Positions 1 to 62,833 of a DNA stretch of 64,000 bases are shown in pieces. Position 1 is the first letter of the stretch; the number at the start of each line of letters is the position of its first letter. The position numbers were made by a program, and so were the translations under genes. Under the pieces are notes generated by a model. That model ran no database searches, was not told the DNA's origin, and saw only the letters and a program-made list of their open reading frames with translations. The stretch comes from Owenia fusiformis (taxonomy: Eukaryota), in contig CAIIXF020000001.1 in NCBI GenBank assembly GCA_903813345.2, positions 5,022,001-5,086,000 on the forward strand, read 5' to 3'.

Positions 1-1598
1 ATACCCACTAATTATACCCTTGCACACAAGGCAACACTACAATACGATCTCTATCGCAAAATGTTGATTCCAGAGGAATGTTATTGACTTGGAATTAAAC
101 TCAGTACAATAAATAAATTAAGGGAATGTTGACTTCAAATCATTCACGAATAAATTACAATTGCCTCCAGTATAAAAAATATGAATATTTTGTGACTTTA
201 TTTGGCATGAGACAGATCGGGTAAATCTTGTAAAAGATTCTCAAAATCTTCTAAAAAGGATCCACCATGAAACAGAATGAGATGTTAAGTATCTAACGCC
301 CTCTGCTCAACAAAGACCATATATGACCATATAAGGTGATCGACAAAGACCATATATGACCATATATAGAGGTTAATTTACTCCCGGTACAAATCTCATA
401 ATTAACCAAGAGTTACACCAGGGACCGAGAATTCCTACGATCAAAAAGTTATTCTGATAAATCTTATAGATTCCAAAAAAACTTACGATTGTACGAATTA
501 AAGTATATCCAGATCAATAAATCTGAAATCTTTTAGAATTGGAATAACACAAATTCGTGGCCCCAGGGGTGTTAGCTCTCATTTAGTATCCTTTTGTCCG
601 ATGTTAGTAAGCTGGTAGTTGAGCGAAGTAGGCTTAATTATATTGCACCATTTACCTTTGGCTACCATGGAATCGGCATCTTGAACTTGAACAATAGATT
701 CAATCCAGACATAATAACGCATATGTCATAAAGGGTGTACAAAAGTATATCTTAACATAATGGAATGCACATTTGAAATGATCAGTACATCTCAAAGCAT
801 CACTGAGCTGGCGCACAGCCCCGGGAATTAATACGGCTTAATGGAACTAGTATAGTAGCATCCATATTTTAGGAACATGTGCGCCAAACTGTACATATTG
901 TACATATTATTGTACATATTGTACATAATGCATGTATTAAACTGTTTCATTAAACAGTTGAAACACCAATATTTATGCATTCTGACTGAGACAATGGCCT
1001 TAAATAATACATTTGTACACAGGTAAAATATCTGTTTGCTAATTTTGTACACTGGTAAATGTCTGCTATGTTTAACGCCATATTGTTTTACAAAAACAAC
1101 ACAACAACAATCAACCTGCCACCAAATATAATAATGATATAACGTATATTACAAATTTTATCAAACAATTGATTGTGTGGACCAATCAATACATGACTAT
1201 CTTACCCGATTTGATTAACTATATTTTATATTACTTTTAATCTCTCGTTTTGCTTTTTGGCTGAATCGTGGCCAGTTTAGCCTATTGCACTTTACTGTTG
1301 TAAATGTGAATCTTATAAATAAAACTGATAGTTTTACATAGTTTATCAGATATTTTCTATCATGTATATAGAGGCACTTACTGCTGTACTTAAGTCAGCA
1401 TTTTTATATATATAAGCCATCTTCAAAGTTTTGAAGGTGCAGCATTAAGATTGCTATGTAATTTCTGTTAAAAAATCTGTAGCACCTTATAAAACGTTGA
1501 CCTCATATCTTCAATACGTCACATGACGTGATAAATATACTATACTAATTCCCGACCCTTTGTCTGTGGTTCTCACAAACAATGTTTTCTCCAGAGGT

Positions 1599-1780
1599 TC
1601 AGTTCTGCTGTTGGAGAAGGGTTTCAAGTTCGTCCGCTGACCGATATAGGAAGGCTGCCGACTCTCTGTAACCTGCGATCAGTTGTTTTATTGTTGCGAT
1701 CTCACTTGAGTTTAACTGGGTTTTGGAGGACGCTTGTGATTTCTTTATGCTCAAATCTGTTGGACCAGACACTGGGAGTC
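1599..1780 (-). CDS. NOL4: NOL4-family terminal exon ([11 protein letters not shown]...[30 protein letters not shown])
   Basis: Matches the NOL4/NOL4L C-terminus ([23 protein letters not shown]) and PTDLS motif; ttctag| acceptor in phase 1; TGA at 1599-1601. Confidence 0.95.
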
Positions 1781-2029
1781 CTAGAATGGCACAGCGAATA
1801 CATTCATTATATTTCACTACATTACAAATGCATGCATTACATACCATAATATTTAAACATTTTAATATCTTGAATATACCCCATCTAATGATCAGAAATT
1901 GAAATAATTCTATATTCTATTTAGTGATCCAAAAGAAGTCACAATTCTTTTATTCAACCCATCTCGCGGTTTTGATAAAATGTGTGTAACAATATGGATG
2001 GAGAATTACTTGATAATCTTAAAAGCAAA

Positions 2030-2345
2030 ATCAGATCTATGTATACTGTATGGGGTGAAAAAATTGCAAGCAACGTGCACAATTGACCTATCAATCTATT
2101 CCTTACAAGCTCAAATACAATCTCCCGAAAGATTCACGATATGTTATAAATTGGTGAAGTTATTTACGATTCAAAATACAAAATTAGGTGAAAATGTTTA
2201 AATTCGCCCAAATAATAAAAATGGTAACCATGTTTATAGAAAAACAATAAATTTTTGTAAAAATCTAGTTTCCCTGAAATAAAGTATGCACGTTGAGAAT
2301 TTTTAGATAATAGACATGACAAGGAACGTCACAGCCAAAAATATT
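2030..2345. repeat. Inverted copy of the 34010-34345 dispersed repeat in the last NOL4 intron; a more decayed copy lies at ~27470-27615
   Basis: CTATTCCTTACAA..TCAAATACAAT..ATTCACGATATGTTATAAATTGGTGAAGTTAT aligns with the reverse complement of 34010-34345. Confidence 0.8.
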
Positions 2346-2548
2346 TTATTGGTGGATAGTATAGATGTCACTTTGGATTAGCTACGCACCAACCATGATT
2401 AAACCAATCCCAACAGACCATACCAATAAAGTAAATAAATAAACAAAGTATTATCACAAAATAAGACCATGTAAAATGCACAATTTCGTATGATTACATT
2501 ATCTTAAGACATCTTAATTTGGGTAATTGTTCAGGTTCGTAAGCTTAC

Positions 2549-2939
2549 CATTTTGTAGTTGTGTAGCAATAGTGGAGTGCTGCATGACGGGTGGGTGATG
2601 ATGTGCCTGGTGCTGAAAACCAGCTCCGGGGAAGCCGGGCCGGAACAACCCATTACCATTCGTAAGGAAAGGATTGTGTATTTCATGGGGAGGTCTGAAT
2701 GCTGTCGGTGCAGCCGCACCTGTGTGTCGCATGTAATCCGCTACACTAGCGACGCTTGTGACTGGCTGACGCTCTAGTGCGGGAGGCTGATGAGATACGG
2801 GTGGCTGCGGTTGATGCGAGACTAGTACGGGAGATTGGTGCGATGAAGGCTGGGGAACTGGAGGCTGTGTCTTTGCTGGTTTTTCCGGTGTCTGTGATGG
2901 CTGGACAGCACCTGTGGACGGTAGACCCATTGCACTGGC
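2549..2939 (-). CDS. NOL4: NOL4-family exon 9 (ASAMGLPSTG...Pro/Gln/His-rich...TQLQN)
   Basis: GC-rich coding-like ORF; aaatag| acceptor in phase 0, G|gtaagc donor in phase 1; 391 nt. Confidence 0.85.
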
Positions 2940-5651
2940 CTATTTAAAGGAATAGAAATACATCAGCTATTTTAAAGACGACGAACTGAGGGACTGATTG
3001 AGAAACACTAAAACTAGGTACGTATTAAACAGAGATACACCAAAAGAAGTCAAACACACACGATAAAATAGTGAAAGTCATTGGTACATACATACAAAAG
3101 GCATGAAAACTGAATGAAAGTATCAGAAAATCAAATCAAACAGGTGATGTTCAACTAGAAAAAGAAGTGAACAATTCCAAACTCCTACTACTTGGTCTTT
3201 TCTTTCATGTTAAACTACAACAGTTTGAAGTATGTTGATTTTGCATGCATCATGATCAAATGCACCACTGAGAAATACATGTGAATATATCTGTGTTGAA
3301 ATATATAAATAAAGATGTGTGGTTAACTGTATATGTAGACTATTTCAATTACCCCAATAACGATTTACTAACACGTTCTCTTTCCATATAACTTTCAAGG
3401 TAATTGTGACTTTTATCATATACCGGAACTTCACATCCATTATACATAGAATTCTGATTGTGATGAAGACCCATATAATGTCTCATTGCATTGTCCTATG
3501 GCATTCATATCTAGTCGTATCTATTACATGACACATATTGAAAACTCATCATACCAAGAGAACGTAATATTTCAACAATGATGATGGTGCTAAACTACCC
3601 TATGTAAACAGATCGGACAAAATTAAGAATCTGTGAGCAAATATGCGACAAAAATCTTTCGGATTTCAAAATGTCAGAGGAAAGGTACGTTTGTTTTTTT
3701 ACTTTTGTTTTTTGCAAAAGTGTTATGTCATATGCTATTGCTATTGATATTCGATTGAGTATTTTGTTCAAAATTGTATCAGGAAAACACCCGAAATGAG
3801 TTGATAAATCCAAAAAATCGCCTACAAATTCGACGCTTTTCAAATTTTTCTGTTGTTACTAAATGATTATTTTGAATTATACAAACTCAATTTTATTCTG
3901 AATGATGCTAATTTATCACTCCCTTACATGCTTACTTATGATTGATTATTTGAATCGACCTGCCATCTTTATAAAATATGTGAGAGATTATGTCATGCGC
4001 AATGGAGCAGTTAGCAAATTTTTAATTCAACAAGTCCTCCCAACCTAGCACTATCTATTAAAAATAAGTTGAACAAAAGGGGCGGTTATTTGATTATTAA
4101 AATAAATGGTTGATATAATGAGAGTATTTATCCCTTTTACTTAACATGTTTTAGCCCAAACTATTGATGTTTGGTTATATTCTTGTAAAGATCCGCTTCA
4201 ACCTAAGCACAGCTAAAGGGTATGCAGTAAAGCCTGTTATCCGAACACCTCACTATTCTGAATAACTCTTAATATAATGTGAACACTTTTTGAGATTCCA
4301 TTTTATTTGCTATAGACTCCCTTGTTAAAAAACGTAGTTGAAATGTGAGTGACTGCCAATCTAAACACGTTTGTCAGGTCCCGAGGCCAATTTGTTAAAT
4401 GTGTTCTGGTAATTCCAGTAATTAGGTCAATTCGGTTAAGCACGTGGTAAGTTCAGGTTTACAACCATCAGTCCCGAGACTTTCAGAAGGTGTCAGGTGA
4501 TGTAGGTTCGAACCTAAGGTGAACCTTAAAGTGATACCCATAATCTGACGGTTACCTAAACGGACCTACAAAAAGTATACCTTATACCATCTGGAACGTT
4601 AATGTTTACTTCAGGCGTGAGGCATAAAGTAAATCAAAAAAACTATAGCGGAATTAAAATCTTAGAAATATTTAGAGAATTACCTAAAGCGAACCTAAAA
4701 ATCTTACAACCTGAAGCAATATATATAATGGAATTACCGAGAGCGACCTCGAAAACTTTTCATGTCATTTTCACCGAGTATCAGAAGCGTACTCTATATA
4801 CCATTCATAACACTAAATATTAATGCAGATAGATATTGCTTTGGAACACATTTATATTTTCAAATGCAGTACCTTATCACTCGCATGCTAAGCTGTATAG
4901 TGTACAAGCACAAAAAGATCTACTCAGGTTTTAATAACAAAACTTTTAGTAAATAACGGTTACAATACATTTGAGAAAGAAAGGTTATTGCATCTTTGCT
5001 CACAGATTCTTAATTTTGGCGGATCTTTTCACATAGGGTATAAACTGATGTGAATATGAACGTTTTTGTTTGTAACAACTTATGAAAAATGGGTAAAAAG
5101 TAATGGAGTATGCGAAATTTGCACATTACAAGTAAATGACACCGTACATATCTAGATCTATGATGCCATTCTATTGTAGTACCACATCATTTTGAAATGT
5201 TTTTTGTCAACGTTTATAAACCAATGACTGTTTAATTTGGACAATTTTTACTTGTTGTATAATCATGTGTGACATGTAATGTGGCAATCGTTTGGTGGGA
5301 TAATTATGTCAGAAAAATCATTTTTAGCGTTGCACTGCATTTTCAAATCTTTGTGTTCGCAGGCACTCTGGATAACACTACCAATACCACTGGGTTAAGG
5401 ATTTATCTCACAAAACAACATCAAATAAGTGATAAAACAAAAATTGTTCTACTACAGGTTAGAGCAAAAGGTCCACGACATAGATATAGTGTGTAGTATA
5501 GTGTGTAGAACAAGTAAAATCAGCATATTCTGTACATAGTGATGTGATATAATAATGTTATTCGTCTTAGTAGATGTGTGTACACCTTTCGCTTAAACCG
5601 ACCCCTCACCAATACATGCAATCTAAAATATTCTTCTATCTATGGTTTTAC

Positions 5652-5768
5652 CGGCAAAGGGTCTAAGCCCATCCTCATGCGCTTTGCATTGTTGGTTTCA
5701 TTTTCACAGGCCTGTGCTAATAGTTGTTCTGCAGCTGCAGACGTAAGATGTGGAGGGGTCGGTCGGAG
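5652..5768 (-). CDS. NOL4: NOL4-family exon 8b ([39 protein letters not shown])
   Basis: Matches the NOL4 motif [22 protein letters not shown]; ttttcag| acceptor, CCG|gtaaaa donor, 117 nt, phase 0/0. Confidence 0.9.
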
Positions 5769-5836
5769 CTGAAAATCAGAGATGATAGTCAAGCAACAAT
5801 AGATCACAAGAGCACTACAATAGTACATTCAGTTAC

Positions 5837-5944
5837 CGGTAGGGGTTCCAGTCCCATACGCATGCGTTTAGCGTTGTTTGCCTCGTTTTCGCATGACTGT
5901 GCAAGTATCTGTTCTGCTATTGGTGAAGATAGGTGTGACGAAAG
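5837..5944 (-). CDS. NOL4: NOL4-family exon 8a ([36 protein letters not shown])
   Basis: ttttcag| acceptor, CCG|gtaact donor, 108 nt open in phase 0/0; paralogous to exon 8b. Not in the ORF track. Confidence 0.85.
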
Positions 5945-6475
5945 CTGAAAACCGAACAGTTAAAATTGGTGTCATCTGTTATCTGATATATGTTTGTAAT
6001 TAAATTGATAATACCACTGACATGTAGTATAGTATATATCACCAAACGGGGAGATCGATTCATTTGCCTTACCGAGCCAAGACCTACAGTGTATGAGTGA
6101 TTTGAAATGTTAATCGATTCGAGACGATTCTATAAAATATGCACTGGTATATACATGCATTTCATTTCTGCTTTTCTGTATGATAAAATCATGACTAGCA
6201 CTTAATGGATTATAAAGGATTAGATCAGTTCCGGCAGAACAATGAAATTATCATCTTACATTTCTGTATCGTGCAAACTGTAAACCATCTCAATATCAAT
6301 TTGTTCCCTGTATTTCGAGAAAGAGTTTTATGGTATTCAAATATGAGTGACAACATGCAGATTTAATTACTGATATTAAAAATGATCTTTAGAAACGTTT
6401 GCCAATGTTTCATTCAAACTTTAACAAATCGAAAATTGAACGCAACATTAAACCTTCCATGTGTGACCTTCTTAC

Positions 6476-6676
6476 CGGTTCCCAGCCATTTTCTTTAGAC
6501 CTTCTCATTCGCCTACAGGACTTCAGGTATGTCCTTATCCTTTTCCTGGAACGTCCATGGAATTCTGGGAATTGTCTGTCACAGGCCTCCAATATAGCCT
6601 GGATTTTATCTTTAGGTTGTTTTGATATGGGAACTGTTCTATCTAAGTTTTCGTCAACAAACAATCTGCAGAACAT
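6476..6676 (-). CDS. NOL4: NOL4-family exon 7 ([28 protein letters not shown]...[14 protein letters not shown]...WEP)
   Basis: Most conserved NOL4 domain; tttcag| acceptor, |gtaag donor, 201 nt, phase 0/0. Confidence 0.96.
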
Positions 6677-7299
6677 CTGAAATAAACATGAACTAATTTA
6701 TAAAATCATTAATAATGTGTTTATTTAATTGTCTCTTAGTGTGCATTAAAACCACAGTAACACTTAATGTAATGACAATTGTCCCTTACAGTGAACGGTC
6801 GAAGTTCTTTTAAATAAACATGCTTTTGTGGCTTCTACATATTTTGATCTAGGTGTCTATGGTCGATATGATTGTTGAATAGGTTTGCGCATAGAACTCT
6901 GTTGAAGATTTGTTTTATGGGTTTGTTAGCATATTATGTATTACGAATATTGGCCCTTTGACCATTCATACTGAAAGCCACGCCTTGTACAAGTTACATG
7001 TATGGTGGAACATGACTTATCTACAACAGAATAAATGGGACATTGAAGGATGATATGAATATTTTTGAAGTATTGGGCATGTCCTTTATCTAGATTTGTT
7101 AGCTTTGTATACCAAAAAATGAGCAGGATTTTGATTTTGATTTGACCTGAGAAATGTAGTTATATTAAACTCTATTGGTTGTTTAGCATTATAGTCACAG
7201 AACGTTGTTGTGATTGGCTCAAAAAGATATTGTTCCTAAAGTGTTGTTTGTATTTGTTTAACTCGTATTACTCGTGTTGTGTTTTCTTATTTGACTTAC

Positions 7300-7425
7300 A
7301 TTAAAAGCTTTAAGTCTCTCTGGATCATGCTCAATTGATGTTTTTTCTTCTGATTCGTCGTCGTCATCATCATCGTCATCTTTACCATTGTCATCGGCTG
7401 CACCATCACTTGCCTTTGTGGAACT
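7300..7425 (-). CDS. NOL4: NOL4-family exon 6 (SSTKASDG...poly-Asp...DPERLKAFN)
   Basis: Acidic run followed by ERLKAFN, which precedes [12 protein letters not shown] in NOL4 proteins; gtttcag| acceptor, |gtaagt donor, 126 nt. Not in the ORF track. Confidence 0.93.
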
Positions 7426-9037
7426 CTGAAACACATTGATGAATATCAGGTTTAACAGTTTAAAGAGTTATTTAAAGAGATGATCATCTAAACTAGAAAT
7501 ACAAATCATTAGTGATTTGACAGACCCTTTATGTATAGGCATATCTAGCTAGAGTTGTCTTTGACTAAATATTGGTATATGTTTTCTAGATAGTAAGACG
7601 TAACATTTAAAAAAAATTCACTTGCGAATAAATTTAAAATTTGCCTTGAAATTTTTTTAATGATTTATTGTTAATAACGATGTAAATTCCTTAATGTGGG
7701 AATCATGCTTCTTGGAATTTATTTTTGATACTCGGTTTAATAGTAGACATAATCCCCCTGGTAGAGCATAAAACTGAAATGGTTATTGTGATAATTATAC
7801 CGTGATCGAACACACTTCGATACAACGTATATATAAATGTATGTCAATCTTATAGATTAAGATATTGATCAACTGTAAAGCTTCAATGTCAGATCAAATT
7901 AAGTTTAATAGAATGTCATACTTCAATATCTCAATTTGATATAATTGGACGTAAAAAAGCAAAAGGATTACCCCAGTCTAACTTTAGGCCTTGATTAATC
8001 AAAAACATGTTTGTTGCATAACAAAACATTGCCTGAGCATTTTTTTCATTCTTATTAAAGAACATAGTTAGTTTATAGATGTGAGGTTGATTTTAGGAAA
8101 TTAATGTCAGCGGAATTGGTCAATTGATCAGCCGACTAGCTTACTTATAAAGTAGAACATTTCACAAAATGCATATATTAATAGAACACGATTGAACGAA
8201 TAGGCAACCATCAAGGAAGAATGCCTCCCAGGGTTCCAACCCTATAATCTGCCATATATAAAGTCGTGTCGTTTTTACAAGATTCAAAATCAAATAGCCG
8301 CCATTTTTTGTTCAGAATCTGAATCGCGTGTTTTGGTCTTATTTCCGAAAACACATTTAAGGAGTGATCAAGACATTAGTTCAGATCTTTTGGATCACTG
8401 ATTATGGATTTATAGACCAGTTATAATGTCAGAAAATAACAACATTTTCAATCTTGTCGTCGATCAACGTCAAGATGAAATATCGAGTTGGAACCCTGGG
8501 AGCCAATACTCCTTGGGCAACTATTACGTACTGTCGTGATTTCCATATGATCGCCGTCTTCCAAGGGGATTTGCAGAATCGAGTATTTAATATAACGGAG
8601 TTCTTTATTTGGCTTCCGTGTTTCAATCTATAGATCATTTTGATAGAAATATAAGTATTAAACAAAGACCGATTTTGATTCTGATTTCCATAATGTCGAG
8701 CTTAAAACCATCGGAGTAAAACGATCTCAATCAAACTGTCAAACGAATAAAATGCTAATTCAATATTTTACCTATTGGATAAGCTGTTCCTTGCGTGCTT
8801 AGAGTGGGATGGGTAGTGAAGGTATTGTTCAGCTGTCAAATATGTAGATATGATATAAAAACATAAAACAACCATACTACTAAGCATGGATCAAAAACCA
8901 ATTTCATTATAAAAAGCCGCCATTTAACGCTCACAACATGACGGTAGATGAAAACCAATGTTGCGCTCTTTTATCAAAGTTTTCTGACTCAGGGTATAAT
9001 ATATACATAATTGTATATGTATTAATTTAAAAGTTAC

Positions 9038-23553: not shown

Positions 23554-24215
23554 TAATTGGCTAAGTTGACTATTGTCATATGCATATTTGTGAACTCCAA
23601 TGACGGTCCGCTAATTAACACCCACGTGTTAATTATTGAACTGTATTTTGATATCCTACAAAGAGTGTTGTCACGATGTCATATTTAAACTGCTGGTGGA
23701 CCAATTTTCTTTATATAAGTAGTAAAGAGATGTACAGGGGGCCGTTGACTAGAAAATGCAAATCGCATTCTCTGTCTCCCTAAAAATCAAAATGGTAGTT
23801 GAGATGAGTAAATTGCGAACTTGAATCGTCTTTCTTATTCATGAAAATTAAAATCGTTCATCTTTAGCCAAAGATCTTTTTGTAAGTTCTGAGCTCATAA
23901 TAATAACGAATCATCATATTATATGTTTTTTATGGAACAACATTCTTTCTCCTCCGGTTGCCGGGATTAAAACAGTTGAATTAAGGGGCTGAGGAACAGT
24001 TTAGCACCATCTTTCAATGAGCCCTTCTCATTGCCCTAAATGATTATTAGGATAAACTTATTGAAGGTGTTGGATGCAAAGGTATTCAGTATTTATCCTC
24101 ACGAGGTCAACGACCCCTAAAGGTCAATCTCCATCGGAAATGACAATGTTTATCTCGCAATATAGAATGGAAACGGACATTAACCTTAACACCCATGAAC
24201 GTAAAATATATTTAC

Positions 24216-24458
24216 CTCTTCCATTTTGACTTCGCCATTTTGATACATGAATCCGTCCCCAACCTGTCCCTTTCCACGCATGTGATTAAGATATGCTGTT
24301 GTGATGGGCATACTATAGTCTATTATAGGTTGGTCCAGTGAGGTGTTCGCTGTTACATTATTGTTCTCTCCACTATGCATGCGCTTCTGACAGTCTGCGC
24401 ACGAGAGAAGAAAATGCGTCACTGCTTCACGTGGTATAAACGAATAGGTTTCAGAAAT
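24216..24458 (-). CDS. NOL4: NOL4-family exon 3 (ISETYSFIPREAVTHFLLSCADCQKRMH...KMEE)
   Basis: Continues the conserved NOL4 sequence (ISE.Y.F.PREAVT.FL.SC..CQKRMH; IDYSMPIT.AYL.HM); ttccag| acceptor, |gtaaat donor, 243 nt, phase 0/0. Confidence 0.95.
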
Positions 24459-25464
24459 CTGGAATCAATGGAAGACAGTATGTAAATGTATATCATAAAA
24501 GTACAGGTTGATCCGAAAACGTCAACTTATTTATTCGCTAATAATTTCTTTCACTGCTATGGGTTTCAAAACCATACAGTGAGGCCAATTATGTAATTGT
24601 TCCCCAGAATTTCATTCAGGTACATTCGGCCAGTGTATTTCTTGTTACATGTGCATGAAAACAGGGATTTTAATGGTTAATTTCAGTGGCAGAACTTTCG
24701 TATCTAGTTAACGACACTTTGATTCGCAGGTACAGACAAACGAAATCACCAATTTGTAATACAAAAGATGTTGGTCATTCGACCTGGCGTTTACTTAAGT
24801 ATGATCTGTCATATAATTATATTAATATGCGTTATATCGCGAATTACTCTAATTTGTATATAAATATCAAATTGCTTCCCGACTGTGAACTAAATTAAGT
24901 ATTGTGTTGAAAATTACATAATTTGGGTCTCTTATAGGTATGAGTCTAATCCGAATAATTCGAATATAACTAGAACCACTGATGGAAAAAATTTGAAAAA
25001 ATTAGTCCAGTTTCTCCAGTTATTATATTTTTGAAAGACCTTTTTTAACAACATTAGCAAATATAGACGTGGTATGGCCCACGAAGAAGGCAGAAGAAAA
25101 TTATTGTATTTGATATGACAAAAACCAGCACTCGGCAGAATGTTTACTACGATTACCTTCCAATGCATATATGTGTAGAGGAAGAGTTTCAAGATGCTCC
25201 ATTGACGGAAAAACAAATGACGCAATTTGCAACAAGGTTCTGATCCTATATACATCGGGATAACAGTAGGTCAAATGGTAAAGGGTTTGGAATGGCTTAA
25301 TTATATTTAAGGAACATTCATGTTGTGCAATCTGTTATTGGTTCTTGTCTATACTTAATATAGCTACGATATTAGTCATGTGTTAATTGATATGACTTAT
25401 ACTCCAGTCATGTATGAGATGTAACTAAGCAATGAGGACCAAACATCACTGTACGGCGACTCAC

Positions 25465-25605
25465 CGCTTTGTAGGTTCGTTTTTGTCCCGCATGTTTTCC
25501 ACTTCGTCCCTCCATTTCAACATGTACAGAATATATAATATCGAAGAAATCTTCCACCACTGCCACACGTTTGTAGACCCTGTCTTCGTCTGGAGCATCT
25601 TCAGC
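25465..25605 (-). CDS. NOL4: NOL4-family exon 2 (AEDAP...KRVAVVEDFFDIIYSVHVE...GKHAGQKRTYKA)
   Basis: Near-identical to the NOL4 motif RVAVVEDFFDIIYSMHVE...KHAGQKRTYKA; ttgcag| acceptor, |gtgagt donor, 141 nt, phase 0/0. Confidence 0.95.
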
Positions 25606-28600
25606 CTGCAATAAGATAAACATATGCCATAGGAACTCAAATATTTGATAGGCTAAGAACTTCAAAGCTTTAATAAGCAGATGCCATGACCAGATAGCAA
25701 TTTCGTAAAAATAAAAATTCGTTACACTTGGCTCATAAGAAGAAAATGTTCGTCCTCGGATTAGTAATAGGCGGATGTGTACCAATGGGTTGCGTGTTGA
25801 AACCAATTGGACAGAGAAGTATATAAGCTACAGAATGACTACAATATTGGGCGAGTAACCAGGTAATTACACAGATTTTCTCTAGTACACCATACGCTAA
25901 CTGAATGATAAATCAACTAGTTGCCATGGAAACGTATCCTGTCCCGGTAACTCTAATGTATGCTTACTTCATCTCGGCGACAGGACAATCTTATAGTGTT
26001 GAACCAGTGAATACACACTTAATTCCATCATGCTGCCTTCTCGGCTTGCATGTCACTTCCTAGAGAGGACATATGGTTTCAATCTACGATTACAAAGATA
26101 ATCGTATCTTATGTATAATACATTGCCATTGACCATTCTACTTATTCAAACGAGTTGTGATTACCTGGAAGGGTTAATAGGAGTAGCGCCGAAGTTATCA
26201 GTTCTTGTTTAACAACCATCTCTCGGATGTCACTAATTTCTAACAATCAAACCACACACGGTAACATCAAACCAGTAGAATCATGGCAATAGAGCAAGCC
26301 ACACCAAGTTCAAGTCAACATAGCAAACAGAGAGTTCACATCAATAAAGCAAGTCACACAGAGCTCAAGTAAATAGAGAGAGCGACGTATTTTTCAAACC
26401 GACACATATTTGTAATAATATTTAGTGATACATGTACACACCACAGGCCACTTGTCTGGTTTCATGTGAAGCTAAATTATGAAAGTTTCGCTGTCGCCAA
26501 GGACGGATTTGCTATAAAATCAACCACTCGATATAACTGATACATATTGAGATGTACTCTGTATCATTGAAATTCCACCTTGATGTCAAAATATATCTTT
26601 TTAAGTACCACAGGGGATCCAGAGTTTTAGTGAATAGGAACTCCTTCTCTATACCATTTCCACCAAAATCTTGCATCTTTATGTTCTAGGACACCTTTTC
26701 TAGAGATGCAGAAAGTCTGTACACTAAATCATGTAGTTAAGAATTTTGAAGCCTCTGAATATGCGACTGAAAATGTTCAACAATAAGGAAAGATTGCTGA
26801 ATGGAATTTTTCGAATTTTCTTGAAAATATGCCTACTTCATTGTTTGAAAAGTACACCATAAATAACGTTTTTTCCATTTTTAATTAGGTTGGTTACAAT
26901 AGTTAACGTTGTCGTTGGTCAGTAGGGCCGTGCCACCTACAGGGTTTCACTAATTTGATATCAACGCGTCGCATTAATTAGCTTAAAACAACGCTGCTTG
27001 GACTATTTGACTTCTTTAAAAGAAAACCGTAGCTTTTTACGGTGTAATAAACATTTAACTAAAAACCTGTACCGTATTCGGTATACAAGGAATAAAATCG
27101 AGTTTTTCATTTTACGATTCCCAAATCGCACAATGTGCACTCGCTAGTTTTTTTCAAAAGAAAGCACATTTGTTCGAATACAAGATATAATAGGAAACTA
27201 TATCCATCGAAGTTTAACTAATTCGTTAATACAAGCTGAACGAAAGATGCAACCCTCTATTTTTATTAGGTGCGGAATACCACCTTTTATCAAAATAAAC
27301 GTTTTTGCGATGTAGTGATATCACATTGTGTTAAGTGTTTTAGGCGTTTAGTGTAACATCATGAAAATCAGATCAAAATTATGAAATTAGACCAAGTATA
27401 TTACAGGCTGTGGATCCTACAATGGTACAATAGGTTTCCCACCAAAAGTTTGACAAATGTAGTCGTCATAGTTATTATTTGGGAGATTTTTTAAAAACCT
27501 TAAACATTTTGAATAACTTCACAAATTGATTGATAACATATCGCAATTTTTTTGTTTTTGAGATCTTAGGTTCATGTTGTCTGCAATTTTGTCACCCTTA
27601 CAGATTTAATTCTACCTTTAGTGGAGAAGTTATGTTTCAATAGTCTTGCTACAATCCCTTGTGACAGAGTTGTTGAAGGAGATAGTCCGGGGTCTTGAAA
27701 TAGGACTATTTGTTGAAAGCATTTGAATGCTACTTGTATATCATATTTCTGCTTCAGAATGCATCGTGTCTTGCAATAAACATGATCTAACGCTCAACAG
27801 AACTATATTCATACTTCCCAATGACTCGAAGGCACAAAACGAGAATCCTACAGAGAATTCAAGCTGAAATCTCGGGATGTTTGTTAATGACAATGGTGTC
27901 AGTTGTCTGGAAGAGATCAGTACAAAATAATTACTTTGTGATGCACCTGCGGCGTGAACGTTGCAAACAGTTTTTAATTTTCTCCAATAGCATCTTACAG
28001 GCCACCTACCCCGGGCACAGAGAACTAAGAAATAAATATACAGTTTTGATGCTGTAGATCAAATGAACCCACAAAGTAGCTTGCGTGGCCTTTTATGGGA
28101 GTTTGGACATAAAATAAATGCAAGATACTGCACTGATTGGGTAGCTTCAACCTGATCGATACGTTCTCAATACATTGATTAGGTAAGGCTATGATCAAAG
28201 GATTACCTCAGAGTGGAGATGAAGCTGTCTTTTAAGTAGCGAAATCAAACTATTGGGAATGGTACAAGCCATCAAGACTAGCCTGGCAAACAACTTAATT
28301 GGATATTGGCAATGCTCTAAACGTTTCAATTGTTTATTTAAACTTTGGAAGTCGAAGATGGTCAATAGGTTATAGGTAACACATTCCATCTAATACCAAT
28401 AAAAAGGAGTATATTAGGTTAACAATACGGTTACAAATATGTTTTATATCTTTTATAAGTTCATGTTTTACATATAGTCAGTCTATTTTAATAAAAGAAT
28501 TTACCGAATAACTATATGATTAAGTCACAATTTGCATTTACATAAACGTCTTGAAAGGAAGCGATGGGGTATCACTGATTCCAAAGCAATCTCGTTTAAG

Positions 28601-30047
28601 ATTCGTTCGATTTAAGTTTTTAGGGGATTTTGAAATGTAAATGAAACAATGTACACCTTCGGCATCATTCATTATATACTACAAATATATCTTGATATCA
28701 ATTGTCAAAAAATGAATTTCAAGCGATTTTAGCATCAAACAAATTGGAACAACCGATAACCCACACTACTCACACGCGCAATCACAAATTACTACACACA
28801 GGTATACGTTAGTTTTAGTAAGGCCCCAATGGAAAGCTGGCAACGTTTCTATACATCGCTCTCTATCGCTTGATAAGTGAAGTAAATGAAATAATTTAAA
28901 ACAATATCCATGATCTCATAGGCCTTATTGTGCTGCTCGTCATTCTATTATTTTTGAATAAATATTTCAAAGACAACAAATAGCTTCAGTTAGGACAGCT
29001 CAAATGAAGATAAAGCCAATTTTTCTACTACCATAAGTATGCCATTATGTATATCCTTAACTAGAGAGCATTACATTAACGCATATTAGTAAGTCGTGTT
29101 GGGTTGATTCAGTGCTAAAACCATCGAGGAAGAATCTGGAATGAATACACTGAAAAACCAAACGTACATTTTTCTGATTCGAAAACCAATAACCAATAAG
29201 TCCGAAACAATCACTTCTTTAAATGCCTTTGTATACATGTCCCAGCACGAAAGTGGCGTAATTCATTTTGAAAATTCTGACAAAATAGTTATCTTCCTTT
29301 CTCATCCATGACTGTGTCGATAATTAAAGGTCATTATCGGTAAATTAGCAGAACTTCGGATTTGATAAAAGGGTGTCCAACAGCGTCCATACTGGTTTAG
29401 TCATTTAGTCATAAAGAATGGCGTGTATGATGATCAAATTAGTTTTTTTGGATACTACTTTTCAATGTCAGAATATGGACTATTACTTTTACACCAATGT
29501 TTTCTTTCAGGCGTACGAAATATCTCGCTGGATCCATAAGTGGATCTGGAAATTGACAAAGGACATACATTATTTATCGACACCCCCTTTAGCCCTTTTC
29601 CGAAAATTTTGGGCAGTTTTCTCAAATGGGCCCCTTTTTCCAGGAGAGTCCCATATTTTCAAAACGTGGTACCTAGTTCTGAAAATGAGGTTTTATTTTA
29701 GCCCTAAAATGAAATGAAATGAAATGAATAGTGCCCCAACCCTTGAAAGGGATGGGTGTGTCCTCTAAATAAATGCGTCACAGGTATCAAGATAAACATC
29801 AGTTATCGTAGGGCACACGCTCTCTTATCCTATTGTATTGAGTCAACAGCTTTGCCGCATGTACAAAATGATTTATTGTATTTGTATGATGCTCTAAACA
29901 CAAGTTGAAAGTAAAACAATTACATTAGTGAAAGCATATTGTATAACAGGTCATAAAGGTCGTGTAATAAATACGGCGCATTGGGTCGAGTTCAGCTCAA
30001 TATAATAGTTTCAATGGGTAATAGATCGATTGAATAATTGATCTTAC

Positions 30048-30344
30048 CGTAACCTTTGTTGGAACGTACAATAGCGGCTCCTCCCCCTCAATGCGTGTCA
30101 AACCGGCCCGGGACCCAAGACGGAATCCTTTGCTTTTTACCCAGAACTTAAACTTGGAGTTATCAGTGGATTCCTGGTCCAGTTCCAATATTTTGATTAT
30201 GCGTTTATATTTTTTCCTAGTCACTGTCTTAGTTTTGCCATTTTCACCGTAATTCCGTATTGACCACGCGTGATATGCGTGGAATATATCGTCCCGTGGA
30301 GCAGTCGATAGCATCTCGCAGCCGCTACCAACTTTCGCTGTCAT
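30048..30344 (-). CDS. NOL4: NOL4/NOL4L-family protein, coding exon 1 (MTAKVGS...LYVPTKVT)
   Basis: ORF contains NOL4 N-terminal motifs (YGENGKTKTVTRKKY, DNSKFKFWVKSKGF, LYVP); ends at ACG|gtaag donor, 297 nt, phase 0. Confidence 0.92.
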
Positions 30345-37300: not shown

Positions 37301-37780
37301 TATTTTATGAACGCTTGGATCTACGAAAAGTTTAGGCAGATATTTAGACTGCTTCTGATTGGTTGGTTCTGGCTAAAATAACACCTATGGTCTATGCCTA
37401 ATGACAGGATCCACAGCTGCCCTTCTCGTTATCTCGCCAACGTTCAACAATTTGTTACAGAGCGATTTCTAACTTACTTCTAAACTCAAAGTTTTTAAAC
37501 TTCTATGATAATCTTTATGATAATATATCGATGATTTCTCAACATGTAATGGATTCTTGTGGTTTTTGTCCTGGCGATTAGGAACTGATTTCTAAGTAAG
37601 TTGAAGAAGACATCGACCATCCAGTCGTAGCGCATCAGGTAGATGTAAAAATCAATGAGGCCAATATGAAAACAATGTAAAAGAAAACTACATGTAAACT
37701 AAATAGTGGAACTTTTTCTTCCCATTTTCACAATTACAAAATTGGATTGGATCAACAAGTCGTGGATTCTACGGACAGTC

Positions 37781-38207
37781 ATGAACGCTCCCACACTTCA
37801 CCACTACCAGTCGCCCTTTTCTACGAACTGGCACCAGGCCCCCGGGCTTCAAAGGACATCTATATCATCTCTGTATGGAGGTGGTGGCTTTCCAAGCTAC
37901 CATTCTGTGGCAGACTGGGGATTAAGTCACAATACTTCAACATCAAGTATGAGCACAGGGGGACACAGTAACAATACAGCGGCACATCTACTCTCCAGGG
38001 ACCACCCCGCTTCCGAGTTTCTCGCCACTGCACAATCGCACCCAGTCAGTGCCTCCCATGGACACTTGTCGTCAGTTGACGTAAATGCTGCAACAGTTCT
38101 GGGCTACAACAATCCTCTCGAGTCAATGTTTAACGCACAGTTTAATAAAACAAGCATCCCACTGTCACCAAAATCCACAACAGCCTCGTCAGATTCAAAG
38201 TCAGCAG
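37781..38207 (+). CDS. Mox: Mox/Meox homeobox protein, exon 1 (MNAPTLHHYQ...SSDSKSA)
   Basis: Ser/His-rich ORF; first in-frame ATG at 37781; CAG|gtgag donor in phase 1 fits exon 2. The start codon and the link across a 13.6-kb intron are inferred. Confidence 0.8.
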
Positions 38208-38652
38208 GTGAGCCTATGTTAAAACTCACACCAGAAATATGTTACTATTACACAAAAAGTTGATTAGGCTAGCTAAAAACATTATGACATCGCAAATCCT
38301 GCGGTAAAATGATTGAAAATTAAATACAGATTCATACAAATGTACTAATATACATGGTGTAGAAATCAAAGAACCATGGAATATTAATGCAACAATCATC
38401 CGAGAAAAAAGGCTCTGAATGTCGTTTATATTTCTGCCGTAACTCATTCTGAAAATGCCACTTCGGTCTAAATACTCTAGTTCAAGAATTTCTGAAATTA
38501 ATCTCAATTATGAAGTTATCTGACATTTTATAAACACTTTTTGAGGATAATCGATTTTCTCCTTTACAGATACCACTTTGAAAATGTATTTTCCCGCCAA
38601 TTTCAAAATACGCATTTTTTTTTTAAATGTAAAATGTTTTACAAAAAAATGT

Positions 38653-41981: not shown

Positions 41982-42469
41982 AGCATTTCATATTATCAGC
42001 ATATTGTGCACTAAGAAAGCAAGGGGATTCAAATTCAAAAATATTTCTCTATCTATGTATGCGTACAATACTGAAATGCTATCCTACATGGATATTATAA
42101 CAGAATAAAGTATTTGCTTAGTTCATATACAAAGTTATATATATTTATCAAAAGATCATGATTTCCATGTCTTTGCTAAGCTTTATTTCATGGAATGTTA
42201 TCATTATATATTGTGATATACTGCAGCATTTCATATTATCAGCATATTGTGCACTAAGAAAGCAAGGGGATTCAAATTCAAAAATATTTCTCTATCTATG
42301 TATGCGTACAATACTGAAATGCTATCCTACATGGATATTATAACAGAATAAAGTATTTGCTTAGTTCATATACAAAGTTATATATATTTATCAAAAGATC
42401 ATGATTTCCATGTCTTTGCTAAGCTTTATTTCATGGAATGTTATCATTATATATTGTGATATACTGCAG
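41982..42469. repeat. Direct tandem duplication, 243-bp unit x2
   Basis: AGCATTTCATATTATCAGC... starts at 41982 and again at 42225; no differences seen. Confidence 0.95.
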
Positions 42470-51006: not shown

Positions 51007-51783
51007 ATGATAATATGTCCGGGTCAAATTAAAAATATATCTCATCTTTACCAAAAAAATACCGCATGTGAAACAAAAAGTCGTATAACTAAATTGAACC
51101 TCATTGATGACAAAATAAATAATAGAGAGTAAATGTTAAACTAACTATTAATTTAGCCAATTGTTTAACATCGCTTATTTAAAACCGAAGGTATTACATA
51201 TTTGTTTTTTCTTATTTTTGAACAAAAATTATTATAACATCGTGTAACTATAGTAGACTGAGAAACAAATACTAATTAAAACTAATCAAATTGGGACCAG
51301 AGTCTCATTAGAAGCTAATTACATTATATTATCTGGTGGGGTCATTGCATTTGTTTGATTTTTTATTTGGCATATAACCATAGTGTAACATTTAATAAAG
51401 ATGAAACAAATTGTTGAGTGTTGATATCCAAATACAGGAATAAAAATTTAAAAGTCCAAAATTAACGGACTGCCTCAAACTTTGCGTTTGCGATTGTGAC
51501 ATTTGTGATAATGAAAAGTAACGTGAGAACTTCCCAAATGATTATGGCCCAACAGAATATTAAAATAAATGATTCAATGGTTCCTGATGGCATAGGGGAA
51601 GTTAGGGGAAAAAACTAAGAAAAAATTCAAAATATCTTTTAGCCCTTTGTAATTTCATTTACGAAAGTCTAGATAAAACCATTTTGTGACTTATGATATA
51701 TGCAATACCAGGTAGTTGTACATAGGTATACATTTTAAGATTTTCTAAAATCCCTTAATTATTTTACAATTTTGTGACTTCAG

Positions 51784-51959
51784 ATTCCAATTCGGATAGC
51801 TCCTACCAGTTGGACCTGAGTTCAAAACCAAGAAAAGAACGCACTGCCTTCTCAAAGCACCAAATAAAGGAGTTAGAAAAGGAATTTTCAGTCCACAACT
51901 ATCTGACTCGACTGAGGCGGTACGAAATTGCCGTGGCCCTTGATCTCACAGAGAGACAG
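51784..51959 (+). CDS. Mox: Mox/Meox exon 2, homeodomain helices 1-2 ([59 protein letters not shown])
   Basis: KPRKERTAF and [14 protein letters not shown] are diagnostic for Mox/Meox; cttcag| acceptor, CAG|gtatgt donor. Confidence 0.97.
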
Positions 51960-53887
51960 GTATGTGGATGGATGTTTTATTTAGCACTTCAAAGAGAATA
52001 AGTAAAGATCTGAAAAATGCAAACTTCTAATTAATTATGGTGACATATTCTCTAATTTTCATGTGTAGATAAAAATGTTTGAAATCTATCGAAAGAATGA
52101 TGGATTTTGTTTTGTTTAATAGTAATAAATAAATTTGCAGAACTATGTTAAATAATCTAAATAATCTGAAAATGTTTGTGAACAGTATCTAATTCGCAAC
52201 AACAAGTTTTAAAATGATATACTACATGTATATAAGAGGATTTCCAATTACTAAAATTACTTGAGTCATCCGATCAATTACTTATGTCTTTTAGTATAAT
52301 GGTTATCTAATATGTTCCTAAATACATTAATTACAGCGGGCCTTAAATGAGTAATAACATTACATATCAAAATTTCTAAACTTTTGATAGATAATTGAAA
52401 TCTTATTTTTGCTACAAGTTTTAAACGTAATTAATATTATAAACGGAAAGTACTGAGTGCTTTTTAAAATCATGTATTTACATTAAAAGAAGTAATGCTT
52501 ATTGGTAGTTGTTAGAACAATTTAATACTTCGAGTTATTATTTGCTTGTTATGAGTAAAATAATTGAACCTACTACTAGTATATGAAAAGTAACTATTAT
52601 TGAGAAGTAACTTGTTCTGCATGTTCATATTTTGGTGTCAGAAGCAATTATGGATCATCCAGAGTCTGCTAGCAATGGGGATACTATTGAGTTTAAAATA
52701 GGGTAAAATAACGCTAAGAGATTTTCAGATTTTATCAATATAATATATATAGGTGAAGTTGAGTATAAAAATGAAGTATTTTTGCCCCATTGAGTTAGAG
52801 ACTTAGTTGACAGACGTTTTTTCAATAAAATAGTGAAAATGAAGTGATAGTATTTGACAGTATTTGCTTCTACCTTTTTAAAATTTGCCTCGCAAATTTA
52901 ATATTTGCCTCGTCAATTTTTAGATTCTGGAAACGTCCCTGTCGACTTTATTGTCAGAAAATAATGTCTAAGAATTATTTAATAACCAAATTAGAAACCC
53001 AAAGTTCCAAACCCATTAAGAAAAGCCTTAATGTTCGAAAATTATATTGAAGTAAGAAGTTGAATAAGAAGTTGTATTTTATGTCTATTGCTTCATTTTT
53101 TAACTCTGACCAATGTACATGTGCATCTACAGTATAGCTTGTCAAAAGTTTAAAGCAAGAATAACATGCGCCATGTTTATGGCAAGAACGAAGTTACCAT
53201 GTAATGAGAAGTCGAGCACACATGGTCCAAGTCATGTTGCTTTCAACACCCCACCTGGTAAAGCTATCCAGCCATGATAAACTCCTATGTGCCTATGTCT
53301 TACCACATACTATATCAATCTATAATATACACGAGGACAAGCGGGTTAGTTGACGTACTGATGTTTCTAGCACGATTTAGTAGAAGAGTTCACGATTTAG
53401 TAGATACAATATGAATGCAGATTTTATGTTTAGGTAGAATGACAAGCACGCAGTTTGCCATAATGGATCTGGAAATTGTTGTTGCGAATTAGATAATTAC
53501 CAACGTGTCGTTCTAATCTTACATTTATGTTTTAAGAAGTATATGGAAATACATGTTTGGTTACTATAGCAACAACATGAAAGAGATCAATTTAACGAGC
53601 TTAATTGAGTATGGGGTATCATAGAGCGCAGCGCAACAGGTTTCAACCAAGTTCTCAGCTGAGAAAACACCCAACAACCACATAAGTTTGCAAATTAGGA
53701 ACAGCTTTGCTAGCAGCTGTACATTCAACATTTAACTCTAAATCCCGACAATTAGTCAGTCATCAAGTCGTATATTTTTGATTTGGCCACTCATTAGCAC
53801 CAAATTAATTATATCGCTTGATATTATCACATTCTTGCTTTATTGTTGATGACAACTACTACTCCTTATTTTATGATCAAATGGTGT

Positions 53888-59906: not shown

Positions 59907-60562
59907 TACTCCCTGAAACACCTTGTCCAGGTAACAGCTTCTGAAAATATTCATGTAGATACTTCATTCTTGCGTGCTTAAAATCTGTAGTCATTGAGAC
60001 AAATGTTCCTGGGCTATAACGGAATTAACTGATGGATATTTCATCATATATTATACACATATTCTGTCAGAGAAAGAGATAATACTGGATTCTGTTGGTG
60101 CTGCCATCTTTATATCGGCCCAGAACCTATGTAATTTATCTCTCTTGTTATTCGGATCAATTTTTACCACTACACCTCATCTCTACAACTCTACATTTAT
60201 CCTTCTCCTGTAATATGGTTTCTTTTGTGGAGCCAAGTAAGTACACTTTGGGTGGGGTGCGTCGTCTGGGATTTGTCATTGTTTGATATGAAATCGACTC
60301 CTTCTTCACAAGGGTTGTGGTCGTGTCTTTGTCTGTTTCTGATTCGTCCTTGTCTCCGCATGGTGTGGCTTCACTAGTCTTCTCACCTGGAAGGAACGAA
60401 GCAATTTTTATTTCATGCACTTGGTTCGAATTATATTGTTTTATCTAAAAATTGCTATTATGCCTTACAATGACTAACATCGTACGCCAATTAAGCCAAT
60501 TATATCCAATGCCATGGCATAGAGTTGTATATATTTGCTAATTGCAAGAAGTACTGAGTGTA

Positions 60563-62074
60563 CGAGGGTTGATCCAAAAGTTCTCCACCGTTTTATCTAA
60601 AAAAATTATTTCTTGGTGAATTTTGTTCAGACTTGGTCAGAAGCAACATGAATATGATAGCTTGGTATTGTATTAATATCATTGAAAAAATATAATATTA
60701 ACTATGTCATTTGGTTACCATAGTAACAGGACAACGAGGAAGGCGGAGCTGAATATAATCACTGTTTATTACAATTTTTTGTCAAACAACATGGTATTAT
60801 TACAGAGTTTTAACAAGGGGTTTTAACATTAATGAAGGCTTTTATTTGATGCAATATCAATGTTCATTCTCCTTCAAAATGGTCCCCACCATGGGCTATG
60901 CATTTATTGCATCATTTTATCCAATTATTGAACACATGCCGAAGTCCATTCTCAGCGACTGAATACACACTGTTGGTAAAAGCTACAATCATCGACTCAT
61001 CATCTGCAAAACGAATCCCACGGAGGGGCTTCTTAGTGTAGCCAGTACTGTGGAGATGGATTGGATAGGCCAAAGAAGACAAAGGTACAGAAATCTACAT
61101 CTAAAGTGATGTTTATCATCTTTTTCGACATCCACAGAATCATCCTCGTTCACGCCGTGCCAACTGGAGTTACTGTGAATTCTGCATATTATTCAAAGGT
61201 AAATTGTGAATCCCAGGTTTTGGACCCGACTTGGACCCTGTGTTTTGGACACATGACTTCTTCAATGTCTTAGTTGATAAAATATGCCTTTCCATGGTAC
61301 CTTCATAGTTATACAATATGGCATGTACATGTATTTGGGTCTATTCGTGATAATAGAAAATGAACTGAGGTATCATAATTGATGTGTTTCAGTTACTAAG
61401 GAAGAATCTGAAAGATGCCATCAGGAGAAAGAGGCCAGAGCTTATTGCAGATTGCTTCTACTTCCATCATGACAACGCCCCTGCCCACAGAGCTAACATT
61501 ACAATTGAAGTTATACATGAGCATTTACAAGCAGAACTTGTCAAGCATCCCCCTTATTCCCCAGATACAGCTCCCTGTGACTTCCACATATTTCCTGAAG
61601 CTAGGAAGCCCCTCCGTGGGATTTATTTTGCAGATGATGAGTCGCTGATTGAAGTTTTTACCAACAGTGTGTATTCAGTCGCTAAGAATGGACTTCGGCA
61701 TGTGTTCAATAATTGGATAAAACGATGCAATAAATGCATAGCCCATGGTGGGGACTATTTTGAGGGAGAATGAACATTGATATTGCATCAAATAAAAGCT
61801 TTCATTAATGTTAAAACCCCTGGTTAAAACTCTGTAATAATACCACGTTGTTTGACAAGAAATTGTAATAAACAGTGATTTTATTCAGCTCCGCCTACCT
61901 CGTTGTCCTGTTACTATGGTAACCAAATTACATAGTTAACATTATATTTTTTCAATGATATTAATACAATACCAAGCTATCACATTCATGTTGCTTCTGA
62001 CCAAGTTTGAATAAAATTCAACAAGAAATAATGTTTTTAGATAAAACGGTGGAGAACTTTTGGATCAACCCTCG
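60563..62074 (+). mobile_element. Non-autonomous rearranged mariner element with 474-bp inverted arms and TA TSD
   Basis: TA|CGAGGGTTGATCCAAAAG...CTTTTGGATCAACCCTCG|TA; 60563-61036 is the reverse complement of 61601-62074; transposase fragment in the centre. Confidence 0.95.
61037..61773 (+). pseudogene. 5'-truncated mariner transposase (C-terminal catalytic part) split by a GT-AG intron at 61199-61392
   Basis: PKK...KVM..IFFD...G.TVNSAYY then LR..IRRKRP...HHDNAPAH...HPPYSPD.APCDF..F...W.KRC.KCI...GDYFE; splicing AAG|gtaaat...tttcag|TTA joins both ORFs in frame; HTH domains and first catalytic Asp are missing. Confidence 0.9.
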
Positions 62075-62833
62075 TATAACCATATGGTAGAACATGCTTT
62101 TGAATATAAATTGTCAAAGTTACTCATGTAAACTGTAGGATATTCTTTAGATCATATTTTTAGTTTACATTTTTCTTAGATATTGCCACGATACATAAAA
62201 AATCTCTTGTTATTTTCAGAAACGCATATAACTTATTCCATATATGGCCAGTATCGCGCAAAAGGTGCATATCTGGGTTATTAGTTGATAAATACTTGAG
62301 GTTTATAAAAAGGAGAAAATGCAACAACCAGCATTTTTGTTTTAGAAAGTAAGTCACTAAATTTTGTATATTTCACATATTGTGTAAAATTCTTGTCCAA
62401 ACTGATAGATGTAGAACATGAATGAAATGTGATATGTGTGTATGGCAATAACAAGGGTGAGGCCATTTCAGTCATCTTGAAAACAAAGAACAAGAACTTT
62501 CTACAAGGAATGGCATTTACCGAAGAAGGCTGTCACATGAGAATTGAGTGATTGGACATCTCTGCATGTACACGTATATCTTATCTGAATGTATATAGCA
62601 AGCAATATCACGTTCCGCTGTGGCTAATAGAGTCATGGTAAATAGCATTTACACTCCACATTTTCATAACATGCAAGAAAAAACTGATAATGAAGGCAGA
62701 GATGTGATTTGACTTTATGGTCAACACCTCCAATTTTTAGATTTTTTTTCCTCATGTTGAAAATCGATGACAGATTTGATTCCAATGTAAACCAAGGGGG
62801 AAATCTGGAGGTACATGTAAAGGAAATATATAA

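Follow-up and report, generated by a model that had tools for sequence, protein, structure and literature searches.

The NOL4 locus and its tandem exon pair

The window, that is the whole 64,000-nt stretch of Owenia fusiformis DNA analysed here, contains the NOL4 gene on its minus strand. NOL4 is a poorly understood neural and germline regulator. The constitutive exon upstream of the exon pair (6476-6676, minus; its start is corrected here to 6676) encodes the core of the NOL4 helical domain (PF23079). It matches the public gene model P0004 at 100% protein identity, and its best protein hits carry the name nucleolar protein 4 or nucleolar protein 4-like. P0004, the sole Owenia protein in our collection and the only member of its cluster, has a PF23079 match at residues 158-255 that scores 154 bits against a cut-off of 26, which places it in the NOL4/NOL4L family. 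Further NOL4 exons were found upstream by tblastn of P0004, P0013 and P0047 against the window; they span 7300-30290 (minus), at approximately 7425-7300 and 10285-10016 and from 15649, 24458, 25605 and 30290. The three upstream exons in 24189-30290 encode a long-isoform N-terminal domain that is absent from P0004. Downstream of the pair, a proline/glutamine-rich exon predicted to be disordered (2549-2939, minus) is followed by the last coding exon (1599-1780, minus), which encodes a C-terminal helix and a PTDLS motif, presumably of the CtBP-binding type. If the last intron were retained, the frame would stop ten codons on (2514-2548) and both the PTDLS motif and the C-terminal helix would be lost; the reads seen represent the spliced form.

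Elsewhere in the window we observed a homeobox gene (37703-38263 and 51759-52001, plus; Pfam Homeodomain, E 9e-14) that stands head to head with NOL4 and that we take to be Mox/Meox-like. A DDE transposase remnant at 60543-62094 is present as two inverted copies that are 84-88% alike, and a perfect 243-nt tandem duplication at 41983-42468 either arose very recently or is an artefact of the assembly.

The pair itself consists of exon A, or 8a (5837-5944, minus; 108 nt, 36 codons), and exon B, or 8b (5652-5768, minus; 117 nt, 39 codons), both of phase 0/0 and separated by a 68-nt GT-AG intron (5769-5836, minus) that would introduce an in-frame TGA as its 11th codon if retained. They are neighbouring internal exons of similar length with further exons on either side, and each is a stop-free AG-exon-GT unit in a compatible reading frame; TTTTCAG precedes both, and both end in CCG followed by GTAA. 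The coordinates, phases, spacing and intact splice sites of the original prediction were thus reconfirmed. A and B have the same residue at 26 of the 33 gap-free codons, and the nucleotide differences at codon positions 1, 2 and 3 number 10, 1 and 21 (68% nucleotide identity). Exon A carries LSS in place of LRPTPP of B, which bears out the earlier observation that 8a lacks the RPTPP segment, in addition to the seven other differences.

The duplicated exon pair is real. That it stems from mis-assembly, from a second NOL4 gene or from chance resemblance is extremely improbable: 68% identity with differences patterned by codon is not what mis-assembly yields, and these readings are refuted by the flanking exons occurring once each in the window and by a search of the whole genome with exon B, which returned two matches only, B and A themselves (E 7e-20 and 6e-11).

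Both exons match PF23079 (positions 73/76-95). The pair therefore forms the last quarter of the domain (positions 73-95 of 95), and the earlier placement of the swap behind the conserved domain was wrong. In two AlphaFold2 models, RPTPP falls in a low-confidence linker while the rest of the duplicated exon forms one confident helix (residues 242-263, pLDDT about 90) that ends with KRMR. The predicted NOL4 core in front of it (window 6476-7330; P0004 residues 158-225) has BEN DNA-binding domains as its best structural match, one that is weak and consistent over the two models. The top entries were 4x0g (Z 5.3, rmsd 2.4, 68 residues aligned) and 7yul (Z 5.2, rmsd 2.2, 62 aligned); the BEN-type matches overall had Z 5.1-5.3 and rmsd 2.2-2.4, with 7yuk, 8yzs and 5jno lower, and an unrelated chain came close to them at Z 5.0. 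Foldseek gave 4ix7 at a probability of 0.51 and E 5.4 and no match at E 0.001, and no solved structure related by sequence to the NOL4 protein was found. The BEN domain is described as a five-helix fold with a middle loop and a central DNA-reading helix (PMC10789644, as far as the consulted part goes), and the weak predicted likeness could mean that NOL4 proteins bind DNA directly.

Origin of exon A and selection on it

The B type recurs in molluscs, annelids, brachiopods and nemerteans, and P0004 contains B and not A; judged from the sequences, B is the ancestral type and A the derived copy. Third positions are saturated, A and B agreeing at 34% of them and either exon agreeing with other animals at 36-37%. 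A and B have in common a Gln that is present in 1 of 39 named spiralian orthologues. Since this residue is rare and a clade of A and B is not rejected, the duplication most likely took place in the line leading to Owenia.

Exon A is an old duplicate that has been under purifying selection. When neutral evolution since the duplication was simulated, 0 of 4000 simulations at each of eight branch lengths reproduced the A/B pattern (no stop, no more than seven residues changed and 16 or more codons changed synonymously), and the best-fitting simulations had an omega of 0.2 or less. The saturated third positions and the rejection of the neutral model agree with the old duplication and purifying selection originally proposed, and so does the dN/dS check that had been suggested between the copies, with 21 third-position differences against a single second-position one and an omega of 0.2 or less fitting best. 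Among 164 distinct orthologue blocks, six of the seven residues by which A differs from B occur in the same column; the seventh is a Ser in A where the column is Ala in 164 of 164, and the RPTPP that A lacks is kept in most relatives. When B was decayed at random by 4 to 7 residue changes, the profile score of A was reached in at most 0.6% of 5000 trials, with an orthologue profile that is partly biased in that some blocks were retrieved with A as the query and six columns are fixed by the extraction pattern.

Exon choice in RNA and the short intron

RNA was looked up in 4 of the 16 listed runs (X8, X14, X15 and X16) over region 1452-7451. X8 consists of contigs whose RNA status was guessed by the tool, and its exon-to-exon joints show that it contains spliced RNA. 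In this run the joints 7300-6676, 6476-5768 and 5652-2939 are each present in one contig at a depth of 97.7. The bin with B has a depth of 57.2, exactly the contribution of B itself, while the depth of 0.05 in the bin with most of A is due entirely to an intronic contig; the depth on B is 97.7. Three further joints that are not displayed cannot involve A because A has no depth. In X16, raw reads of which about 12% were read, two reads span 6476-5768, one spans 5652-2939 and none falls on A, whereas X14 and X15 contain almost no NOL4 exon reads and have no say on exon choice. In all four runs, hundreds of partly fitting outside reads fall on a multi-copy repeat at 2050-2330, inside the last NOL4 intron.

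These data indicate that B is the default exon in the X8 sample. No read or contig was found on A in any of the four runs, of which X8 alone has useful depth, and the share of A in the X8 sample is below roughly 2%, as estimated from contigs, which drop rare variants. One outcome named at the outset as speaking against exclusive use, a dominant 5837-5768 joint with both exons always included, was looked for and is refuted, because the upstream exon joins B directly at a depth of about 98. No A-to-B joint is listed in the four runs, in which A itself is uncovered. The validation rule given for mutually exclusive exons in the consulted portion of PMC5740500 is a set of two bridging junctions, and one of the two is in hand here, that into B bridging A. 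The candidate status of the pair thus stood in part: the junctions 6476-5768 and 5652-2939 skip A, and the counterpart on the side of A was not found in these runs.

The silence of A in all four runs, together with its absence from the gene model, might mean that A was long a working alternative exon and has recently been silenced, leaving a young pseudo-exon and only B in use. The loss of RPTPP and the Ala-to-Ser change at an invariant column would fit this reading, which we consider rather unlikely. An exon A as intact as observed has a probability of 0.40 without a neutral tail, 0.25 with a tail of 0.02 and 0.083 with a tail of 0.05 substitutions per site, and tails of 0.02 or 0.05 retain 62% or 21% of the likelihood. 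Longer tails, of at least 0.1, are disfavoured (0.022 at 0.1, which retains 5% of the likelihood, and 0.002 at 0.15), and silence would fit no more than a short final stretch of a history that was long enough for third positions to saturate. The frame, the length and both splice sites of A are intact, and the missing RNA comes from one run with depth, made up of contigs from which rare variants drop out.

If A is used, the best candidate for what keeps A and B apart is the short intron. Exclusion through decay or through spliceosome incompatibility is inapplicable here, and base pairing is no stronger than in shuffled sequences. Exclusion enforced by frameshift and decay was discarded since 108 and 117 nt are both multiples of three. 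Minor-spliceosome donors follow the consensus GTATCC or ATATCC. Such a donor is absent from the pair, whose donors (GTAACT and GTAAAA) and acceptors are all ordinary GT-AG, so that U2/U12 incompatibility was likewise set aside. For a docker-selector arrangement of the Dscam type, the best shared dockers reach -12.4 and -12.6 kcal/mol, values equalled by 79% and 76% of 150 shuffles in a test on a single genome, where no covariation is possible. Local folding around the pair gave z-scores of -1.3 to +0.8, and the inverted repeats I4 and I17 have a common arm at 6240-6263.

A candidate branch point for exon B, TTGAC at 5788-5792 (minus), is predicted by motif only. Its adenosine at 5789 would lie 21 nt from the B acceptor and 48 nt from the A donor, under the steric threshold of about 50 nt between donor and branch point that PMC5740500 and PMC7969005 derive from vertebrates in the parts consulted; a second motif, 61 nt from the A donor, stands merely 8 nt before the AG. 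The intron is also short for this genome. It is shorter than 31 of 31 sampled myosin introns (126-2160 nt, median 289 nt), a sample that includes one estimated length and one weak call and that would miss short introns if the profile match extends through them, and the published median for Owenia is 1,091 nt (Table 3 of PMC12257675, a source seen in part). Genome-wide counts of donor-acceptor patterns at lengths of 32-46, 61-75, 90-104 and 250-264 nt (45, 33, 45 and 46) reflect background with no short-intron peak, in a comparison of little power. It is plausible that the short distance between donor and branch point sterically blocks the joining of A to B; the splicing of introns of about 60 nt in other invertebrates (L043 and L044) speaks against this. 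A myosin heavy chain gene of this genome (G000:C9:37986009-37994325, minus; L075-L077) holds 14 tandem copies of one N-terminal motor-domain exon, 13 full and one truncated, which are 50-83% identical to the query copy and mostly have AG and GT where expected. Annelids are known to have Mhc exon clusters, and none of 14-copy size was seen in the portion of PMC3912159 consulted.

The short intron also bears on whether A is an ordinary cassette that is sometimes included with B, in which case the protein would carry the helix twice in tandem and KRMR twice. As each exon length is divisible by three, A plus B would be in frame and escape decay. Some invertebrates do splice short introns, such as the one of about 60 nt between ordinary NOL4 exons at L043 and L044 (another animal) and those of Dimorphilus, with a median of 106 nt (PMC12257675, consulted in part). 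The segment moreover tolerates a copy number of zero, as in Haliotis rufescens P0032 and Octopus vulgaris P0043. Against this, the A-B joint is not listed in the RNA runs, two copies occur in 0 of 311 fetched proteins and the 68-nt intron falls far below the lengths sampled in this genome; joint inclusion appears improbable to us, more so than a silenced A.

As for what sets the choice, TGCATG, which we assume to be an RBFOX-type motif, occurs at 6359 and 6159 in the 531-nt intron upstream of A (5945-6475, minus) and at 5615-5620 (minus), 32 nt downstream of the B donor. RBFOX sites upstream of A and downstream of B would repress A and favour B. The three occurrences compare with 0.27 expected (P 0.003), although the hexamer ranks only fifth in the region, with four others scoring equal or better, and no conserved TGCATG was found around the orthologous exon in distant loci. 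RBFOX-type control is thus a weak lead.

From these observations we consider A and B to be probably a mutually exclusive pair in which B is the default and A a rare or tissue-restricted alternative, kept from joining B by the 48-nt distance. Long ago in the lineage to Owenia, tandem duplication of a 39-codon NOL4 exon would have created two interchangeable copies, of which A may now serve as a minor or tissue- or stage-restricted replacement for B. With the predicted branch point about 48 nt from the A donor, U1 and U2 would be too close to bind together across the 68-nt intron. Splicing proteins, and not docker-selector pairing of the RNA, would probably make the choice, and RBFOX-type sites, those upstream of A and the one shortly after B, might bias it toward B. 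The A isoform would keep the amphipathic helix and KRMR behind a linker three residues shorter, lose the conserved RPTPP with its Thr-Pro site and gain a Ser-Pro at the helix start, a swap that should leave nuclear import in place and retune how the helix is positioned relative to a partner or the core domain.

If A is used, an unannotated exon is added to the gene model, and the pair offers a natural swap of a NOL4 segment whose removal alters partner binding in mouse variants. It would also single out RPTPP and the beginning of the helix as what evolution adjusts, and add a further example of a very short intron enforcing steric exclusion in a genome whose introns are long. The pair belongs to a familiar class, brings a mild change and comes from one genome; the gain is for annelid genomics and NOL4 specialists.

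The segment in other animals and in known systems

The pair had been proposed for a search in NOL4 orthologues of other invertebrates, and this search returned nothing beyond the Owenia genome. No second copy of the motif was found in 311 fetched proteins or in 72 metagenome loci (65 with at least 250 nt on each side; many are near-duplicates and a few are transcripts). The 34 isoform proteins of Lingula, Haliotis, oysters, Octopus, Lineus and Tubulanus contain no A/B-type pair, and a word-based protein search whose query was exon A extended by four intronic codons gave no candidate. Among the best 150 of 194 proteins in a HMMER scan with A, none was more than 82% identical across the whole exon or had two true copies; P0163, P0232 and P0248, which appeared there in several stretches or without a score, are unrelated proteins. 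The gar protein that tops the search with the upstream exon repeats that exon and not the duplicated one. In the literature, we found no report of the NOL4 exon pair in a search from which most subscription journals were absent.

The segment is a recurrent target of alternative splicing: the Haliotis rufescens RefSeq isoform P0032 skips the orthologous exon, whose acceptor varies in oysters, Haliotis and Lineus and which is also absent from the Octopus vulgaris model P0043. The recurrent-target view rests on this skipping and acceptor variation together with mouse NOL4-S-delta, which lacks the conserved region holding the NLS and binds Mlr1 and not Mlr2 (PMC5343783, as described in the part consulted).

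A second NOL4 gene occurs in 25 of the 72 loci (L048-L057, L059-L073), in assemblies that also hold the standard gene (L020 with L048, L009 with L052). Its single exon resembles A in that RPT is lost, the start is shorter and a Ser-Pro is gained before the helix (xALPHLTSP[EQ]AES). It differs in being part of a whole-gene duplicate with its own upstream exon, in starting four codons before the His (three in A) and in lacking the Gln of A and B. Ser-Pro stands at the same place in the single exon of two bryozoans. A common origin of A and the second-gene exon is the less favoured reading, the grouping of the two in a 99-column tree being weak (86/87, with a long branch) and the clade of A and B having a p-AU of 0.38. 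Convergence is the preferred reading of these sequences because the A-B clade is not rejected, A and B share the rare Gln and Ser-Pro also occurs in bryozoans. One speculative extension, to which we give little weight, is that a short-linker, Ser-Pro NOL4 evolved twice in annelid-grade animals, by exon duplication with mutually exclusive splicing in Owenia and by gene duplication in L048-L073, or once in a common ancestor whose exons were later sorted into two genes; if the core were BEN-like, the swapped segment right behind its last helix might act as a splice-controlled tuner of DNA or partner binding.

Among known systems, the pair shows all three of the sequence criteria that predict mutually exclusive exons in PMC3228551, criteria shared by only 0.56% of ordinary exons of the Drosophila X in the portion of that study consulted. 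OGDH exons 4a/4b (PMC7969005) and 57 human clusters under 50 nt (PMC5740500), both as described in the parts consulted, are like A and B adjacent homologous exons of similar length and phase with a predicted donor-to-branch-point distance below 50 nt, in Owenia by motif prediction. The likeness extends to one copy at a time in the Owenia RNA seen, B only. In Owenia the whole intron is short, whereas in OGDH and the human clusters the branch point is far from the acceptor; and the Owenia pair, unlike those systems, comes from one genome, with RNA known for B alone. The closest parallel within the family is found in the mouse isoforms NOL4-L, NOL4-S and NOL4-S-delta, where, according to the part of PMC5343783 consulted, splicing hits the conserved NLS region and alters the binding of Mlr1 and Mlr2 there. 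This variable region appears to correspond to the exon duplicated in Owenia, so that the swap would affect the same region, and the long-form upstream exons missing from the short Owenia gene model resemble the difference between mouse NOL4-L and NOL4-S. Most of the region is deleted in the mouse variant, whereas in Owenia it would be exchanged with KRMR retained.
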